DNA from: a virus
Lineage: Duplodnaviria; Heunggongvirae; Uroviricota; Caudoviricetes
IMG/VR virus record: IMGVR_UViG_2851971941_000002
Direction: 5' to 3' (one strand)
Length of the DNA stretch: 39,096 nucleotides
How positions within the stretch are numbered: position 1 is the stretch's first letter; every line of letters starts with the position of its first letter. The translations under genes and the position numbers were made by a program. Below the pieces are notes generated by a model, which saw nothing but the letters and a program-made list of their open reading frames with translations, had not been told where the DNA came from and searched no databases. Of this stretch, positions 92 to 8,253 are shown one piece after another.

Positions 92-385
92 TCACCCACG
101 ATTAACCAACAGCCAGACCAGCAGACACGCCACCACCGGCACAGCAAAATCCATCAGGCTTGCCACATCCCAAGCTCGCGGATCAAAACCGCCCCACCAC
201 GGCATATTCATTCGCTTGCCATGCCCGAACATTTCAATCCAGCGATATTCTGCCTGGGTATGTTCACGCGCAATGAAGAACGTACAACCGGCTATCGCTC
301 CGTAAGCCCAGTTTCCGGTAAAAAGACCAACCAGTATCTGCGCAGCCACAGCACAAAGTGCATGAAGTAAGGGGCTTATATCCAT
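92..385 (-). CDS. hypothetical small membrane protein (97 aa, about 3 hydrophobic segments)
   Basis: ORF track; AGGAGG Shine-Dalgarno (revcomp of 389-394) upstream of ATG at 385, overlapping the stop of the upstream ORF; hydrophobic stretches LLHALCAVAAQILVGLF and FAVPVVACLLVWLLV; last gene of the stf operon. Confidence 0.5.
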   Translation of the reverse strand: MDISPLLHALCAVAAQILVGLFTGNWAYGAIAGCTFFIAREHTQAEYRWIEMFGHGKRMNMPWWGGFDPRAWDVASLMDFAVPVVACLLVWLLVNRG

Positions 386-397
386 TATTTCCTCCTT

Positions 398-676
398 TCA
401 GCTCCATTCCCGAAGCGGTGTTTCCAGCTCCACGACATAATCAGAGAATACAGAAACATCAAACAAGTCATCAAGAATGCGAATGTTGACAAAATAACCA
501 TCATTCCGGATACAGACAGGTTCTCCCTCTTCTGTTACCCCTGTTTCTGTGTAGGTGAAACCAATTTCATCAACTAACAGTTTATTCTGGAGGTCTTCAT
601 CTTCCGCCCAGCCAAGAGATGACAGGAAGGCCTTAAACTGCAGTTTGTCATGAAACTTCAAAGTTAAATCTTTCAT
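398..676 (-). CDS. hypothetical small acidic protein (92 aa), translationally coupled to stf
   Basis: ORF track; its start overlaps the stf stop by 4 nt (ATGA); about 20 Asp/Glu versus about 8 Lys/Arg; no family recognised. Confidence 0.5.
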   Translation of the reverse strand: MKDLTLKFHDKLQFKAFLSSLGWAEDEDLQNKLLVDEIGFTYTETGVTEEGEPVCIRNDGYFVNIRILDDLFDVSVFSDYVVELETPLREWS

Positions 677-2733
677 ACGACCTCTTTTAATTGCCTGTCA
701 TTTAATTCTTTATGCCATATGCGGAAATTGCGAATATGGCCAAACAGATGTCGTTCTCCAGTATTCGTCTGCCCTCCAAATCGGATATTTTTATCAGCGG
801 TCACGCCATTATATTCACAATAAACTTCATTAACCGCTTTACCATTTGTCACCACATGAAAGTGACCATCAGCTTTTGCAATACATCCAAATGTGGTTTT
901 CTCTGCAAATACATCTGTCGCTGCGCTATTAACATACGAGCCTGAAGGGTTTGACAGACTCATATATAACTTACCACTACCTCTGTTGATTGCTGCAATT
1001 GCTGATTGCCCGGTATTGGCTGCTGCTATATCCCACACGCGGGGTGCGGCGTTTGGTGCAATATCCCAGTTTTTATGAATCTCAAGTAAAAAAGTAAATG
1101 GTAACTTATAAAGATTATTTCTGGTGGGGATACTAACCAAATCACTGGCTCTTGTCGTTGCGCTGCCTCCTGAAATAATAAATGATGATACACACGGCCC
1201 ATTCTCTACTTGTGGGGTGGCAAGATAAATATAGTCACCAGATACTGTTGCCCCACCCTGCCCAGGAGAATACTGTATCTGAGAGCCTATTTTTAACTCA
1301 CCATCAATTGCCTGAATCGTTGCCTCTGCAAAAATCCAGCCCGTGGTCTTATCCTTCCTGACTCGTGCCGTAATTCTGCCGGCAGCACCACCTGTCATAC
1401 TAATTTCAAGCGTTTGCGTATCAATGTACGCATCGCCAAGAAAAGTTGTTGCACTACCATCATACTTATCAAACCGTATACGTAACCTTACCTGTCGTTC
1501 TGTTTTAAAACGGCATGAGGTTGTCACGTACTTGTTATCGCCTGAGACATCAACTGACTTTGTTGCAGCAATTGATGCCATATTAATAGCCGAAGTTTGC
1601 CCAACCAGAGAATCGTTGCAGACAAACTTTCCATAAGTAAAACCAAAACTATCCGTCCCGGTTTCGGGCACATCCATGTTTGATGACTTCCCCCAGCTGG
1701 CTGGACTTTCCGAATTGAGCATGTAGTTCGTTCTTTGTCCCTCAATAAGCAGGCCATCACACTCAAATCGCGGCTCATTAATTTCCGCCGTTTTCAGTTC
1801 GCCAGATTTGTTGATATATGTTGCCGTTGATGCGCGACTGAAATTAACCTGTTTATCACTGGCGACCTGAACCACATCGTCACCAATAGCTATTTTTTTA
1901 TAGCCCGGAGAAAAACCCGCAATCATATCCAGTGAATCGTTAAACGGTATCCACACATCAGGCAGCGGCGGCACTATATTCGCACAGGGCTCTGCAGTCA
2001 CTTCCGCTGCGGCTTCTGCGCGGTCTGCCGCCTTTTCAGCTCGTGTCGCTGCCGACAGAGCCTCATCCTTTTTCTGCCCGGCCTTTGTTGCGTCTGCTGC
2101 GGCCTCCCGCGCTTTTGTGGTGGCGACTCCGGCATTTTCAGCGGCTGACTCTGCATTACGGCGGGAAGCCTCTTCACTGTCTGCGGAGGCTTCTTCTGAC
2201 GCACGGGCATTTGTCTCTGAACGTTCTGCCGCTGTTGCTGCGTTTTGTGCGGCTGTTTTTGAAGAAGCTGCCGCTTTCGCGCTGTTACCTGCATTCGTCT
2301 CTGATGTTTTCGCCGCGTTCCTGGACGATGCCGCTGCTGTTTCTGATTTCTTTGCTGCCGCTGCGCTCTGAGAGGCGGCTTCAGCGTTGCGTGCCGCCTC
2401 TTCCACCATCTTTTCAAAACGATACAGTGCCTCCGGACAAACATCATCTTCTGTTGCAGCGCCCAGAAAATCATTCAATGTCCCCGGCTTAGAATCCTCA
2501 TACACGGTGATGGTCCCGGCATGTGAAGGCGGAAAACCTTCAACCAGCAGGGCGACGCTGTACTGGCCATACTCAACATCCATGCTGTAACGTCCGGCTT
2601 CATCCGGATTTTCTGAGGCCACCGTGTTCACCACAACTGTGGTGCTGTTACGTTTTGCTTTCAGCTGGATTGTGCAGTTCTGTACCGGTTTTCCTGTGCC
2701 GTCTTTCAGTACACCTGAAATCTTTACTGCCAT
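673..2733 (-). CDS. stf: side tail fiber protein, lambda Stf-like N-terminus with a different C-terminal region
   Basis: N-terminus MAVKISGVLKDGTGKPVQNCTIQLKA...GFPPSHAGTITVYEDS matches lambda Stf as recalled; Ala/Ser-rich central region; C-terminal motif GHIRNFRIWHKELNDRQL resembles the end of ConA/LamG-like domains; ATG at 2733 chosen over the GTG at 2739 used by the ORF track. Confidence 0.85.
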   Translation of the reverse strand: MAVKISGVLKDGTGKPVQNCTIQLKAKRNSTTVVVNTVASENPDEAGRYSMDVEYGQYSVALLVEGFPPSHAGTITVYEDSKPGTLNDFLGAATEDDVCPEALYRFEKMVEEAARNAEAASQSAAAAKKSETAAASSRNAAKTSETNAGNSAKAAASSKTAAQNAATAAERSETNARASEEASADSEEASRRNAESAAENAGVATTKAREAAADATKAGQKKDEALSAATRAEKAADRAEAAAEVTAEPCANIVPPLPDVWIPFNDSLDMIAGFSPGYKKIAIGDDVVQVASDKQVNFSRASTATYINKSGELKTAEINEPRFECDGLLIEGQRTNYMLNSESPASWGKSSNMDVPETGTDSFGFTYGKFVCNDSLVGQTSAINMASIAATKSVDVSGDNKYVTTSCRFKTERQVRLRIRFDKYDGSATTFLGDAYIDTQTLEISMTGGAAGRITARVRKDKTTGWIFAEATIQAIDGELKIGSQIQYSPGQGGATVSGDYIYLATPQVENGPCVSSFIISGGSATTRASDLVSIPTRNNLYKLPFTFLLEIHKNWDIAPNAAPRVWDIAAANTGQSAIAAINRGSGKLYMSLSNPSGSYVNSAATDVFAEKTTFGCIAKADGHFHVVTNGKAVNEVYCEYNGVTADKNIRFGGQTNTGERHLFGHIRNFRIWHKELNDRQLKEVV

Positions 2734-2742
2734 ATTCACCCC

Positions 2743-2771
2743 ACAAAAAAGCCCGCCTGAACCGGCGGGCT
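2743..2771 (-). terminator. candidate rho-independent terminator between lom and stf
   Basis: On the minus strand, stem AGCCCGCCG / CGGCGGGCT followed by TTTTTTGTGGGG. Confidence 0.5.
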
Positions 2772-2797
2772 GTCATAACACTGTGTTACCTGGCTAA

Positions 2798-3397
2798 TCA
2801 GAACTTATAACCGACACCCACGATGAAACCGTCAGTGCGCCAGTCGCCACTGCCGGAGCCTTCATAAGCAATATCAATGGCCACGGATTCGGTCGGGTTA
2901 AACTGCACGCCAGCTCCCCACGCCAGAGACGTGTTGCTGTGGCGACCGTCATCACTTCCGGTCAGCACGTCGTGCGTTTTCCCCTTGTTGTCAGTTACGC
3001 GGAGATAATCCCCGGAGAAAGTCGACACACGGCTGTAAGCCATACCCGCCATCGCATACGCGCTGAACCATTCATTCACGCGCACAGACGGCCCCACCAT
3101 CACGCTGAACCAGCGGTTACGCACGGAATCTTCATGCCAGCGGGTATCGCTGTAACGGGTAAGCTGGCGATTCTTGTCTCCTGCATAGCTGAATGACGTC
3201 ACCAGCCCCAGTGTGTCCGTAAACTCATAACGGTATTTCACGTTAATCCCGTTAAGATCATCGCTGCCGGGAACGTTCGTCGAGGCATGAAGATACCCCG
3301 CGCTCAGCGTGGACTGATGTTCAGATGCCCATGCAGGCGCACCGGATACGGCCAGACAAATGGCTGCGGACAAAATGGCGGCATAAAGTTTACGCAT
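2798..3397 (-). CDS. lom: Lom-like outer membrane protein (Ail/Lom/PagC family)
   Basis: Signal peptide [40 protein letters not shown] and C-terminal [25 protein letters not shown] match lambda Lom as recalled; position between J and stf as in lambda. Confidence 0.9.
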
Positions 3398-3420
3398 AAT
3401 TACCTCTCGCTTTTCTGCAA

Positions 3421-3446
3421 TAAAAAAGGCACCATTTCTGGTGCCC
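3421..3446 (-). terminator. rho-independent terminator downstream of J
   Basis: On the minus strand, stem GGCACCA-GAAA-TGGTGCC followed by TTTTTTATT. Confidence 0.6.
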
Positions 3447-3466
3447 TTATATGGGTTATAACAATT

Positions 3467-6400
3467 TCAACGAATACTGATGCCGGAAGCGGCTTTTTTG
3501 GTCACAATCACCGTACAGTCGGTGATATTACCTGCCCACTGATTGCCTTTATGGAAAACCTTAAACTCCAGAGTGACGCTTCCCCTGCCACTCGGCATAT
3601 CAATAACCGCACTGTAGCTACCGGGAATGGCCCCTTTAGTTTCTCTGGATGCGATTAATACACCGTTTTTGCGAACTTCAAAACCATAACCCGTGTATCT
3701 TGTACCTCCCGGGTTATTACCACTTCCCGGATCGCTATACGCTATTCCGTTAAAGATAATGGGCGGAATAATGATTTGACGGTCAAAGTTATGATCATCG
3801 CTGATGGTGACTGTAACCGTCCCGTTTGGTGTTTCCGTGTTACCCCACGTACCAGCCTGTTTCGGAAATGATTTGGATACAGCTTTAACGAAGTCACCTC
3901 TGACCTGAGTCGCCTCCAGCATGCCCTTAATCGTACAGTTTTCATTTACCGTGACATTGTTGAGCGTCCCGGCGTTCGCATTCACACTGCCACTGATATC
4001 CGCATTTTTAGCGGTCAGCTTTCCGTCTGATGTCAGGGAAAATACCGGAGGACTGCCACCACTGGTAATGGTGGGGGCCGTCAGGCGCTTCAGGAACACG
4101 TCGTTCATGAATATCTGATTGCCCTGCGCCACAAACATCGGCGTTTCATTCCCGTTTGCCGGGTCAATAAATGCGATACGGTTAGCGGCAACCAGAAACT
4201 GACTCAGTTTGCCTTCCTCCGTGTCCTCCATGCTGAGGCCAATACCCGCGACATAATGTTTGCCGTCTTTGGTCTGCTCAATTTTGACGCCCCACATGGC
4301 ATTCCACTTATCGTTGGCGTCCTTCCACTCTTTCGAAAACTCCTCCAGTCTGCTGGCGTTATCCTCCGTCAGCTCGACTTTTTCCAGCAGCTCCTTGCCG
4401 AGATGGGATTCGGTTATCTTGCCTTTGAAAAAATCCAGGTAACCTTCCGCATCATCGCTCGCCCGACCGACGGCCTCCACGAATGCCGATTTGCCAACGG
4501 TGTTCACACTGCGGATATAAAAGTAATAATCATGGCCCGGTTTGATATTGATACTGGCGGCTATCCAGTACAGCGCCGTACCAAGATAGCGGGCTGTGGT
4601 TTCAACCTGCCTGATATCGGTAATCCGCTTTTCCGAGAACCAGAACTCAAACTGTACCGTCGGGTCATAAACGGCAAGATGCGGCGTGGCGGTTATCTGA
4701 AAATAGCCCGGCGTCAGCTCAATCCTCGACGGTGCTGCCGGTGCGGCAATCCGGAACGATACCGACGCCGGATCGCCCTGCTGCCCCCACGCATTTACCG
4801 CCCGGACTGTCAGCCTGTAGTTCCCCAGCGCCAGTTGCCTGAAGCGGTATGTGGTTTCCGTCGTCCGGGCCGTGCTGACCAGCCGCTCACTGCCGTCATC
4901 CGCTGTTACGGTCAGACGGAGCAGGAAGCTCACGCCCTTCACCACCTTCGGCGTGTCCCAGCGCGCCAGCACCTGATATTCCCCGCTGTCTGCGGTGACT
5001 TCGGCGGTCAGGTGCTGCACCGCTGGCGGCGTGACACCATTCACCGTGCCGCTCTGGTCGCCGTCAAAGTACGCCCCGTTATCCACGATGGCCTCTTTTT
5101 CCGGTACATGCTGCACGGCGGTGATGGCATACGTGCCGTCGTCGTTCTCACGGATACTCACGCAGCGGAACAGGCGCTGGCGCAGCGTCGGCAGCTTCAG
5201 CCCCCACACGCTGTATTCAGCAACACCGTCAGGAACACGGCTCACTTTCACCTTCACGCCGTCGGTGACGGACTGAACCTCCACGCTGATCGGATTGCCA
5301 CTTCCGTCAACCAGGCTTATCAGCGTGGTACCGGAGGATGGCAGCGTGATTTCACGGTCGAGCGTCAGCGTCCGGGTCTGGCTGTTTACCGCCAGCACGC
5401 GCCCGCCGATGCTGATACCGGCATAGTCATCATCACAGATTTCAATGACATCGCCCGGCACATGGCGAAGCCCTTCTGCGCCCACGCAGAAGTCCACGGT
5501 CTGCGTTTCCAGCAGTTCTGTTTTAATCAGCCACAGCCCGGCGCGGTGTGCCTGCCCCCGGCTGGTACAGCCAAAAGCATCCATCTTCGTGACGTTACGA
5601 CCGTAACGGGCAATGGCCTGCGTATCCTCCACAAGCTCTGTCGCCGTCTCCCAGCCGTTGTTCGGGTCAATCCAGTTCACCTCAACGGCATTATGGCGGT
5701 CTTTCAGGGCGCTGAAACTGTAGCGGAACGGCGCGCCATCATCCGGCATCACCACATTACTGCGGTTATAGGTCCACACCTTATCCGACGGTCGGTCCTG
5801 CACGAACGTCAGCGTCTGCCCGTTCCATACCGGCATACAGCGCATCGCCGAGCAGAAATCACTGAGCACATCCCACGCCTTGCGCTGTGTGGTCAGGTAC
5901 GCATTACAGGTGATGCGCGGCTCCGTGCCGCCAAAGCCGTCCGGCACTGACTGGTCGCAGTACTGGCCGATGACATACAGCGCCCATTTGTCCACATCCG
6001 CCGCACCAAGACGTTTCCCCATGCCGTAGCGTGGATGGGTCAGCATATCCCACAGACACCAGGCCATGTTATTGCTGTATGCTGGCTTAAACGTTCCGTC
6101 CCAGATACCGCTGTATTGCCGCGTCTGCGGGTTATAGTTCGACGGCACCTGCAGAATACGCCCGCGCAGATGATAATTACGGCTCACCTGCTGGCTGCCG
6201 AACTGCTCCGAATCCACCTGTACGCCGACCAGTGCCGTGTTCGGGTAGCACTGTTTCACATCGATGATTTCGGTGTATGACGACCAGAGCGTTTTGTTCT
6301 GCAGCTGGTCTGTGGTGCTGTCCGGCGTCATCCTGCGCATCCGGATATTGAACGGGCGCGGCGGCAGGTTACCCACCACCACCGAGGCCAGATACTGTGA

Positions 6401-6880
6401 GGTGGTTTTGCCTTTAATGGTGATGTCTTTTTCCGTCACCCAGCCACCGTTACGCTGTATCTGAACCAGCAGGCGGACTTCCGACGGATTCCGGTCCCCC
6501 TTTGAGGTGGTTTCCACCAGTGCCTGCACACCGAAGGTAAAGCGCAGACGGTCGATGTTTGCAGACGTGATGGTCCGGGTAATCGGCGTGTCGTACTTCA
6601 CTTCCGTACCCAGCACCGTCTCGGAGCCGGAGGATTCAAATCCCTCCGGCGGTGTCTGCTCCTGCTCACCTGCCCGGAAAACCACCGTGACACCGGAGAT
6701 ATTGGTATTCCCCTCACTGTCCAGCACTGGCGTACTGTTCAGCAGCACACTTTTTAATCCGTCCACCGGACCTTCAATCGGCCCTTCACTGATGGCGTCT
6801 ATCACGCTCAGCATCTGGGATGATTTCAGGTTGTCCTTCGCTTCGCGCGGGGTATGCCCCTTACTGCTGCCTTTACCCAT
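3467..6880 (-). CDS. J: tail tip / host specificity protein J
   Basis: 1137 aa; N-terminus [41 protein letters not shown] matches lambda J as recalled; lambda gene order. Confidence 0.95.
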
Positions 6881-7612: not shown

Positions 7613-8253
7613 TTGTCGGTATACCTCTCTCGTTTGCTCAGTTGTTCAGGAATATGGTGCAGCAGCTCGCCATCACCACAGTAAATGGCGGCATGATTCG
7701 GCACCGATGAACCAAAACAGCACAGCAGCACATCGCCCGGTTGTGCTGATGACAACGGCACCTGATACAGCCCTGTGGCCTCCAGATTATCCAGATAGAG
7801 ATTCTGACCGTGACGCCACCAGTCATCCCCGCGATGAAAATCCGGCATCTCAATCCCCGCCAGATGATAAGCATCCCGGAACAGCGTGTAACAGTCCGTC
7901 ACCCCGTGCTCAAAGCGCCGCCCGGTAAGATGCGGCACACAGCGGAATTTATGAATCTCACCCCGGCAGACCAGCCACCACGGCAAATCGCTCTGCACCT
8001 GCAGCCGCCTGTCAGCCTCACTCAGCCAGGGCAGACCACCGGGGTGGCTGTGGACCAGCGCCACAATCTCACCCTGCATTTCTGCCCGCAGCCAGTCCTC
8101 CGGCGACATCCGGAAATACGCCTCCGGCTCACCGGAGATATTCACGCAGGGAAAATATCTTTCCCCCTTCGGCGTTCTCACCACGAAGCCACACGACTCC
8201 GCTGGCGCACATCGCCGGGCGTGCGCCAGAATCGCTGATTCTGTCTGTGTCAT
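7510..8253 (-). CDS. K: tail tip assembly protein K (JAB/MPN plus NlpC/P60-like)
   Basis: MTQTESAILAHARRCAPAESCGFVV...HSHPGG matches lambda K as recalled; ATG at 8253 sits 4 nt after the L stop; the ORF-track start at 8295 overlaps L and is probably an artefact. Confidence 0.9.
   Translation of the reverse strand: MTQTESAILAHARRCAPAESCGFVVRTPKGERYFPCVNISGEPEAYFRMSPEDWLRAEMQGEIVALVHSHPGGLPWLSEADRRLQVQSDLPWWLVCRGEIHKFRCVPHLTGRRFEHGVTDCYTLFRDAYHLAGIEMPDFHRGDDWWRHGQNLYLDNLEATGLYQVPLSSAQPGDVLLCCFGSSVPNHAAIYCGDGELLHHIPEQLSKRERYTDKWQRRTHSLWRHRAWRASAFTGIYNDLAAASTFV

Follow-up and report, generated by a model that had tools for sequence, protein, structure and literature searches.

Which types of O-antigen or capsule a phage can cross is determined by its side and lateral tail fibers. 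These fibers are exchanged in the engineering of phage particles for delivery, as in chimeras of lambda Stf (PMC11338833). In Ur-lambda, the structure of the tail tip together with the Stf collar (PDB entries 9E7M/9MGH) contains 12 copies of the collar, arranged as four trimeric fibers around the gpV/gpM junction (PMC12617516). The lateral fibers of T5-like, Drexlerviridae, and Dhillonvirus phages have been described as directed at a primary receptor, the O-antigen, and a like role has been described for Ur-lambda Stf on unglucosylated O16. In IrisVonRoten (Bas32), the module carried by the proximal lateral fiber Gp22 has been reported as a "galectin-like domain" that protrudes and might serve as an additional receptor-binding domain (PMC11990801). 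The head-spike fiber of the Rhodobacter capsulatus gene transfer agent (RcGTA), Rcc01080, binds the R. capsulatus capsule (PMC7296036; PMC10218006), with a single chain per spike (PMC7296036). Here, we compare with these systems the side tail fiber encoded by stf at positions 673–2733 of a 39,096-nucleotide stretch of viral DNA (Caudoviricetes; IMG/VR record IMGVR_UViG_2851971941_000002), which we call the window.

The stf gene is the side tail fiber gene of the lambdoid prophage Perceval and is of the phage 21 type. Our analysis indicates that Stf probably combines a lambda-type collar and shaft with a double jelly-roll tip that reversibly binds a surface glycan, with the downstream 92-residue protein orf92 as its dedicated assembly partner and with the tip module and orf92 moving as one mobile cassette.

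Architecture of Stf and its distal module

The gene is a single minus-strand ORF. As called by program, the ORF covers 673..2739 and opens with the GTG at 2739. An ATG at 2733 encodes the lambda-like start MAVKISG; it is preceded by GGGGTGA and is the start used in the phage 21 annotation. The stop codon occupies 673–675. Over its full length, Stf matches phrog_1419 (tail protein) with 1100 bits. The gene and its parts are as follows.

673–2733, minus strand: stf, side tail fiber of 686 aa, annotated as a tail fiber in Perceval.
676..1143, minus strand: Stf residues ~531–686, jelly-roll domain 2, LamG/ConA-like, ending in GHIRNFRIWHKELNDRQL.
1144..1854, minus strand: Stf residues ~294–530, jelly-roll domain 1, homologous to the head-spike fiber of RcGTA, with conserved edge strands and a hypervariable core at 350–507.
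1855..1968, minus strand: Stf residues 256–293, conserved leader of the distal module (PLPDVWxPxxDSL...), an alignment block in distant relatives.
1969..2451, minus strand: Stf residues ~95–255, Ala/Ser/Glu-rich shaft, by low-complexity similarity to the lambda Stf shaft.
2452..2733, minus strand: Stf residues 1–94, lambda-type collar (tail-attachment) domain, by phmmer match to PDB 9E7M/9MGH.
~1726–1776 and ~1150–1212: invariant charged residues, Stf 320–336 and 508–528.

A preliminary description of this gene, made from the sequence alone, had proposed that its distal part differs from lambda and ends in a motif that recalls the last strand of a ConA/LamG-type jelly roll. Both proposals hold. 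The distal ~430 residues show no similarity to lambda orf-314, the fiber tip of lambda, in BLASTP, and they are modeled as two ConA-like/LamG β-sandwich domains rather than one, the first corresponding to the NCBIfam model NF048003 "GTA_spike_fiber." This model matches residues 329–529 with 56.8 bits against a cut-off of 36, over profile positions 1–181 of 182, and Rcc01080 itself matches residues 297–543 (E 6e-10). For the second domain, support for Laminin_G_3 comes at the level of the family. We collected relatives of the module through a representative search (2849 clusters at E ≤ 1e-3) and two further profile searches, which led to an alignment of 82 sequences; among these, Pfam searches (E ≤ 1e-3) detected Laminin_G_3 in 43 of the 82 and CBM_4_9 in 10, with a best Laminin_G_3 value of 4.3e-10. 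The module sits at the C-terminal end of proteins that range from 420 to more than 1400 aa.

The fold obtained for the distal module, modeled as a single chain, is a β-sandwich jelly roll. When compared with the PDB through Foldseek, its best matches were AbnA domain 4, the botulinum neurotoxin (BoNT) Hc-N domain, CBM40, pentraxins, and LamG domains. Judging from the aligned lengths, the AbnA and BoNT matches (~185 residues) would fall on the larger domain 1 (~294–530) and the LamG matches (~135 residues) on domain 2 (~531–686). Against viral models, Foldseek recovered the same two-domain layout in three homologous coliphage fibers (TMq 0.89–0.94) and in numerous proteins annotated as "Concanavalin A-like lectin."

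In the 82-sequence alignment, three blocks are conserved: residues 250–345 (PLPDVWxP..DSL ... TATYIxK ... NEPRFE..GLLxEG..TN), 508–540 (QxE...SSxI...TRAxD), and 650–686 (GHxRNxRIWH..LxDxQ). The C-terminal motif GHIRNFRIWHKELNDRQL, encoded at 688–741, lies within the last of these, the C-terminal block in which conservation across the family is strongest. Residues 350–507 and 550–649 are hypervariable. Judged from these alleles, the variable and conserved pattern is that expected of a gene under diversifying host-range selection. The residues E320, R322, E324, E331, N336, Q508, E510, and R528 are invariant among the 82 members, the mean column identity being 23%.

The N-terminal part of Stf is that of lambda, as the preliminary description had also stated. 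Residues 1–131 match Pfam PF08400 "Prophage tail fibre N-terminal" with 227.4 bits (cut-off 26.6), residues 1–94 match the "Tail fiber protein" of PDB 9E7M/9MGH (phmmer, E 6e-51), and BLASTP aligns lambda orf-401 with 75% identity over residues 1–158, near-identical at ~1–113. The shaft that follows resembles its counterpart in lambda Stf, with a low-complexity similarity of 53%; it is 100% identical in Lambda_2E9 and is presumed to form a trimeric coiled coil. No tandem repeats were detected in this Ala-rich segment at the DNA level; the GC content of the stretch that encodes it reaches 0.60. ORFs in other frames or on the opposite strand at 2043–2492 (plus), 1998–2474 (minus), and 2117–2371 (plus) were set aside as side effects of a shaft rich in GC and Ala. 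These overlapping ORFs (149, 158, and 84 aa; 1998–2492) are probably compositional, like the annotated orf206b opposite stf in lambda.

Downstream genes, cassette exchange, and genomic setting

The genes that follow stf in the direction of transcription, and the features upstream of it, are listed below.

398..676, minus strand: orf92, acidic (pI 4.2) soluble protein of 92 aa, whose ATG overlaps the fiber stop codon (ATGA).
92..385, minus strand: orf97, small membrane protein of 97 aa with hydrophobic segments at ~3–24 and ~74–95.
2750–2771, minus strand: terminator-like hairpin in the lom/stf intergenic region, from a consensus scan (7 of the 8 bp in the stem are GC pairs, and a T-run follows).
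2798–3397, minus strand: lom, matching Ail_Lom with 397 bits.
3467–6880, minus strand: J, upstream of lom and stf.

The absence of a canonical tfa gene and the presence of two small, unrelated ORFs behind the fiber, both pointed out earlier, were borne out. A canonical lambda/T4-type tip followed by an ordinary Tfa was looked for and not found, as searches returned no match to orf-314, Tfa, or Caudo_TAP. The orf92 protein has no hydrophobic segment, does not align with lambda Tfa, and yields no match in Pfam, NCBIfam, PDB sequences, or PADLOC; no credible match emerged when it was searched alone and as a 12-member profile against solved structures, the best being telomerase p19 at E 0.34. Its full length matches phrog_1361, of unknown function (E 3e-42). 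With dN/dS values of 0.22–0.41, orf92 is under purifying selection, although the underlying counts are small.

The linkage between the module and orf92 was seen in every locus examined. The lambdoid, P2-like, Drexlerviridae, T5-like, Dhillonvirus, Queuovirinae, and rV5-like loci examined all have an orf92 homologue immediately behind the module, with a junction that is a 1–4-nt overlap or a start at the last base of the fiber gene; the exception is an Aeromonas prophage, in which the homologue follows after a gap of ~110 nt. Among species-representative genomes, the orf92 profile found only 3 loci, too few for our purpose, and IMG/VR was therefore scanned instead. In all 80 IMG/VR loci, the stop of the module-bearing ORF overlaps the orf92 start by 4 nt; the ORF has the Stf N-terminus in 73 of them and another type in 7. 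A second fiber-like gene begins ~10 nt after orf92 in IrisVonRoten, JenP1, Tritos, Dru_SM1, AZ23, and KarlJaspers. The second fiber-like proteins of Tritos, IrisVonRoten, JenP1, and KarlJaspers share the N-terminal peptide MxTxTxIPxDIxxLK, which suggests one docking mode for branched fibers; that of Tritos also carries a Peptidase_S74 intramolecular chaperone.

The module is present in at least eight phage lineages and in 228 phage records. Its carriers include lambdoids, Drexlerviridae (tunus and KarlJaspers), T5-like phages (IrisVonRoten, L6jm, and AKFV33), Dhillonvirus (rolling), Queuovirinae (JenP1 and Dru_SM1), and rV5-like myoviruses (EmilHeitz), as well as P2-like prophages, in which it follows a PF12571 N-terminus of the P2 gpH type, and Aeromonas prophages, in which it stands beside a P22-type portal and an SU10 adaptor. 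The N-termini fused to it are PF08400, PF12571, PF03406, or of another type. In a P2-like E. coli prophage, the order is module, orf92, and orf97, followed by a 70-aa C-terminal fragment of Caudo_TAP (7954–8166 of its locus) that scores 27.5 bits against a cut-off of 22.1 and covers only profile positions 75–130 of 131. From its sequence and position, this ORF looks like the remnant of a gpG-type chaperone displaced, together with the gpH tip, by the cassette. An E. coli-type module with orf92, at 40–71% identity, is also borne by MG065692 (Campylobacter phage C13), MG065666 (A12a), and OR848352 and OR847806 (Listeria phages LM 4-14-1 and 4-11-1). These four records are T5-like- or rV5-like-sized genomes or short fragments, and their Campylobacter and Listeria host labels look doubtful.

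The module had also been suspected to be swapped, and comparison with Lambda_2E9 upholds this. Stf residues 1–270 are 100% identical between the two, residues 271–660 share 10–50%, and the last 26 aa share 85%, followed by an orf92 with 90% and an orf97 with 100% identity; this profile indicates a cassette exchange with breakpoints in the conserved flanks. In IMG/VR prophages, orf92 is still 99% identical beside modules whose cores share just 28–30%. Co-variation of orf92 with segments of the module was considered as a clue to its contact site and rejected, since orf92 does not follow the variable cores; we draw no contact site from it because proximity on the DNA confounds the inference. In Lambda_4C10 (499–2915 of its locus), 4A7, 1W, 3W, and D2, an IS66-family element (TnpA, TnpB, and the IS66 transposase) occupies the 3′ end of stf. 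The insertion cuts off approximately the last 44 aa, including the conserved LamG end motif, and leaves orf92 and orf97 downstream; these phages were isolated and are viable.

The suggestion that both small ORFs are accessory proteins of the module stands for orf92 and only in part for orf97, and the accessory roles themselves are proposals. Located 12 nt past orf92 behind an AAGGAGG site, orf97 follows orf92 in all 77 of the IMG/VR prophage loci that have room for it and also in P2-like prophages (80% identity). It is annotated with 2 TMDs in phage 21, matches phrog_1443 (unknown function) over its full length (E 2e-58), has dN/dS values of 0.17–0.27, and gave no Caudo_TAP/Tfa, Pfam, NCBIfam, or PDB match. 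Because none of the virulent carriers examined has it, and because phage Gally, a P22-like prophage, has a homologue (79% aa identity; 5001–5288 of its locus) behind an unrelated P22-type tailspike, we regard orf97 as a temperate-phage companion that is not specific to the module. It is possibly a prophage membrane factor that shields lysogens from, or releases progeny from, fiber-bound glycan. It is not among the morons listed in the transcriptome of LF82 in LB (PMC9928086). The primer OPM50, which marks the "1st recombination endpoint" of the Gally-Perceval hybrids Galper1/2 (PMC9928086), maps to 509–528 inside orf92; together with the Gally homologue, this makes the orf97 region a probable homology patch for these podophage-siphophage hybrids.

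The setting of the locus is that of a lambdoid tail operon, with J, lom, and stf in this order on the minus strand; the lom/stf hairpin is annotated as a terminator in the phage 21 record. Adherent-invasive E. coli LF82 harbors the lambdoid prophage known as Escherichia phage Perceval, to which the 3.4-kb region is 100% identical; the same prophage, also identical over this region, is found in NC101, NRG857C, and other strains. In coliphage 21, the same three genes have 98.6% DNA identity and are annotated as "side tail fiber," "hypothetical protein," and "putative membrane protein." Among 5426 complete E. coli genomes, 434 contain at least 80% of the 3.4-kb region, and the 90%-identity cluster of Stf counts 2232 member sequences. 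Directly after the fiber cassette, Perceval (2551–6000 of its locus), phage 21, and Lambda_2E9 carry a convergent moron operon for the iron/manganese transporter sitABCD.

Function of the fiber and alternative explanations

In the model that we consider probable, collar residues 1–94 would anchor trimeric fibers around the tail tip, and the Ala-rich shaft would lead to a tip unlike the lambda/T4 gp37-like trimeric needle. Each trimeric fiber would bear three double-jelly-roll heads, one independently folded head per chain; we propose this separate-heads geometry because the RcGTA protein works as a single chain and the IrisVonRoten domain was modeled as protruding from the end of the fiber. 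The heads would bind surface polysaccharide (O-antigen or capsule) reversibly, with their specificity in the hypervariable cores, 350–507 and 550–649, on a conserved scaffold, and glycan binding would speed adsorption or the crossing of the glycan layer before J engages the outer-membrane receptor. The module and the translationally coupled orf92 act as a single mobile cassette that stands in for the fiber tip and Tfa in widely different phages. The orf92 protein would most likely be a dedicated partner in assembly or maturation, either a chaperone or a small stoichiometric subunit, that recognizes the conserved scaffold. The fiber is presumably accessory on rough hosts, since Perceval plaques on rough K-12 DH10B (PMC9928086) and the IS66-truncated relatives are still isolated phages.

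Several points weigh against a glycan-binding tip assisted by orf92. In Stf itself, Laminin_G_3 (PF13385) matches residues 560–681 at 24.6–25.7 bits, below its cut-off of 27.6. Rcc01080 has been resolved experimentally at residues 2–10 alone (PMC7296036), so that no solved structure covers the module and the homology yields no binding-site detail. Recognition of O16 by IrisVonRoten has been ascribed mainly to the separate T-shaped Gp24 fiber and not to the homologous Gp22 domain (PMC11990801). For orf92, modeling from its sequence alone gave a poor result (pLDDT 60), which was excluded from the fold search. Furthermore, the invariant residues E320, R322, E324, E331, Q508, E510, and R528 could belong to a site for catalysis or for metal instead of a scaffold; the invariant charged residues could also be the surface that contacts orf92.

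Such a site raises the question of whether the distal module is a ConA-fold enzyme, a glycoside hydrolase or polysaccharide lyase that cleaves O-antigen or capsule as a tailspike does. The closest structural matches, however, are all non-catalytic binding domains, the Pfam matches of the relatives are to Laminin_G_3 and CBM_4_9 only, and a regular-expression search of Stf found no catalytic motif of GH16 (ExDxxE) or PL7 (RxELR, QIH, YFKAG). Conserved residues lie in edge strands common to all variants, whereas the parts expected to contact the ligand are hypervariable, which fits a scaffold better than an active site and renders the enzyme improbable. Binding need not be to a glycan, as proteins, too, are ligands of jelly rolls of the LamG and botulinum-Hc types (neurexin, agrin, and BoNT-SV2 complexes) and Ur-lambda Stf binds OmpC (PMC12617516); the module could then recognize a protein receptor such as an outer-membrane porin. 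We find this quite unlikely, given that the nearest characterized homologue, that of RcGTA, binds capsule, that modules within one species are only 26–30% identical beside near-identical flanks, an extreme allelic diversity, and that the module occupies the lateral-fiber position of T5-like, Drexlerviridae, and Dhillonvirus phages, whose fibers are described as O-antigen-targeting.

With respect to orf92, the second fiber-like gene that follows it by ~10 nt in six phages, and the peptide MxTxTxIPxDIxxLK common to four of the encoded proteins, would agree with an adaptor that docks a second, LtfB-like fiber to form a branched fiber and that is a leftover in Perceval, not a tip chaperone. This remains unlikely, since orf92 is kept under purifying selection (dN/dS 0.22–0.41) in those lambdoid and P2-like prophages that lack a second fiber, and since the published multimer model of IrisVonRoten joins the distal fiber to the proximal fiber itself (PMC11990801). 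The viability of the IS66-truncated relatives and the plaques of Perceval on rough K-12 might even point to a dispensable or decaying relic without current function, as stf is in laboratory lambda. An intact ORF, its abundance among E. coli genomes and in the 2232-member cluster, and a conserved scaffold with hypervariable cores, the pattern of diversifying host-range selection, make a relic most improbable. These considerations leave the glycan-binding tip with orf92 as its partner as our preferred explanation.

We tentatively suggest, as a possibility that is open to considerable doubt, that orf92 (phrog_1361) founds an undescribed class of small, acidic fiber-tip partners, unrelated to Tfa, gp38, or the intramolecular S74 chaperones, which double jelly-roll tips need for maturation or which stay bound to them. 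If this is true, the module and orf92 would be a portable unit for host-range engineering. The natural exchange unit of module and orf92, with its conserved recombination or fusion points at ~256–345 and 661–686, is useful for the engineering of receptor-binding proteins.

Comparison with described fibers

Phage 21 (CPT_21_22) and Perceval (PERCE_22) carry the same gene, the same 92-aa and 97-aa ORFs, and the same sitABCD morons, with no structural difference from the locus described here. Their records, like PMC9119081 and PMC9928086, contain no account of the receptor, of the domains in the tip, or of the two small ORFs. It is already known that the gene, as deposited, is annotated as a tail fiber; its domains are in NCBIfam and Pfam, and a homologous "galectin-like" domain is in print. 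Biologically, the locus is ordinary, a mosaic tail fiber in a known prophage. We found no description of three features that the compared genomes suggest: the invariable pairing of the module with the orf92 family across lineages, the substitution of tip plus Tfa, and the temperate-only occurrence of orf97. They belong to a common fiber type whose tip differs from the textbook lambda/T4 tip and which has no Tfa and an obligate 92-aa neighbor.

Ur-lambda Stf resembles Perceval Stf in collar residues 1–94, in the Ala-rich shaft, and in its place after J and lom. The two differ in their tips: that of Ur-lambda, orf-314, binds OmpC as a trimeric needle of the T4 gp37 kind and depends on Tfa (Caudo_TAP), whereas Perceval Stf ends in two predicted ConA-like jelly rolls with no Caudo_TAP gene after it. 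Rcc01080 (GhsB) of RcGTA, a flexible, β-rich capsule binder, is homologous to Stf domain 1 (~297–543), and the match stops short of the C-terminal LamG domain. In contrast to Stf, a tail fiber with a collar as its N-terminus and the domain at its end, Rcc01080 is a single chain that sits on the capsid vertices via an N-terminal I/L-G repeat peptide (PMC7296036).

The proximal lateral fiber Gp22 of IrisVonRoten has a homologous module with 52% identity. More broadly, the lateral fibers of IrisVonRoten, Drexlerviridae, Dhillonvirus, Queuovirinae, and Vequintavirinae share the C-terminal module of ~430 aa (37–69% identity) followed by an orf92 homologue; they differ from Stf in their N-terminal anchors and shafts, several have a second fiber after orf92, and none has orf97. 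The arrangement also recalls tail-fiber-plus-chaperone cassettes such as those of Alteromonas phages (PMC10579305). In what that article says of them, a receptor-binding tip is exchanged among unrelated phages along with a small cognate gene located downstream, the same concept that we propose for the module and orf92; the likeness is one of concept only, orf92 being a putative chaperone.

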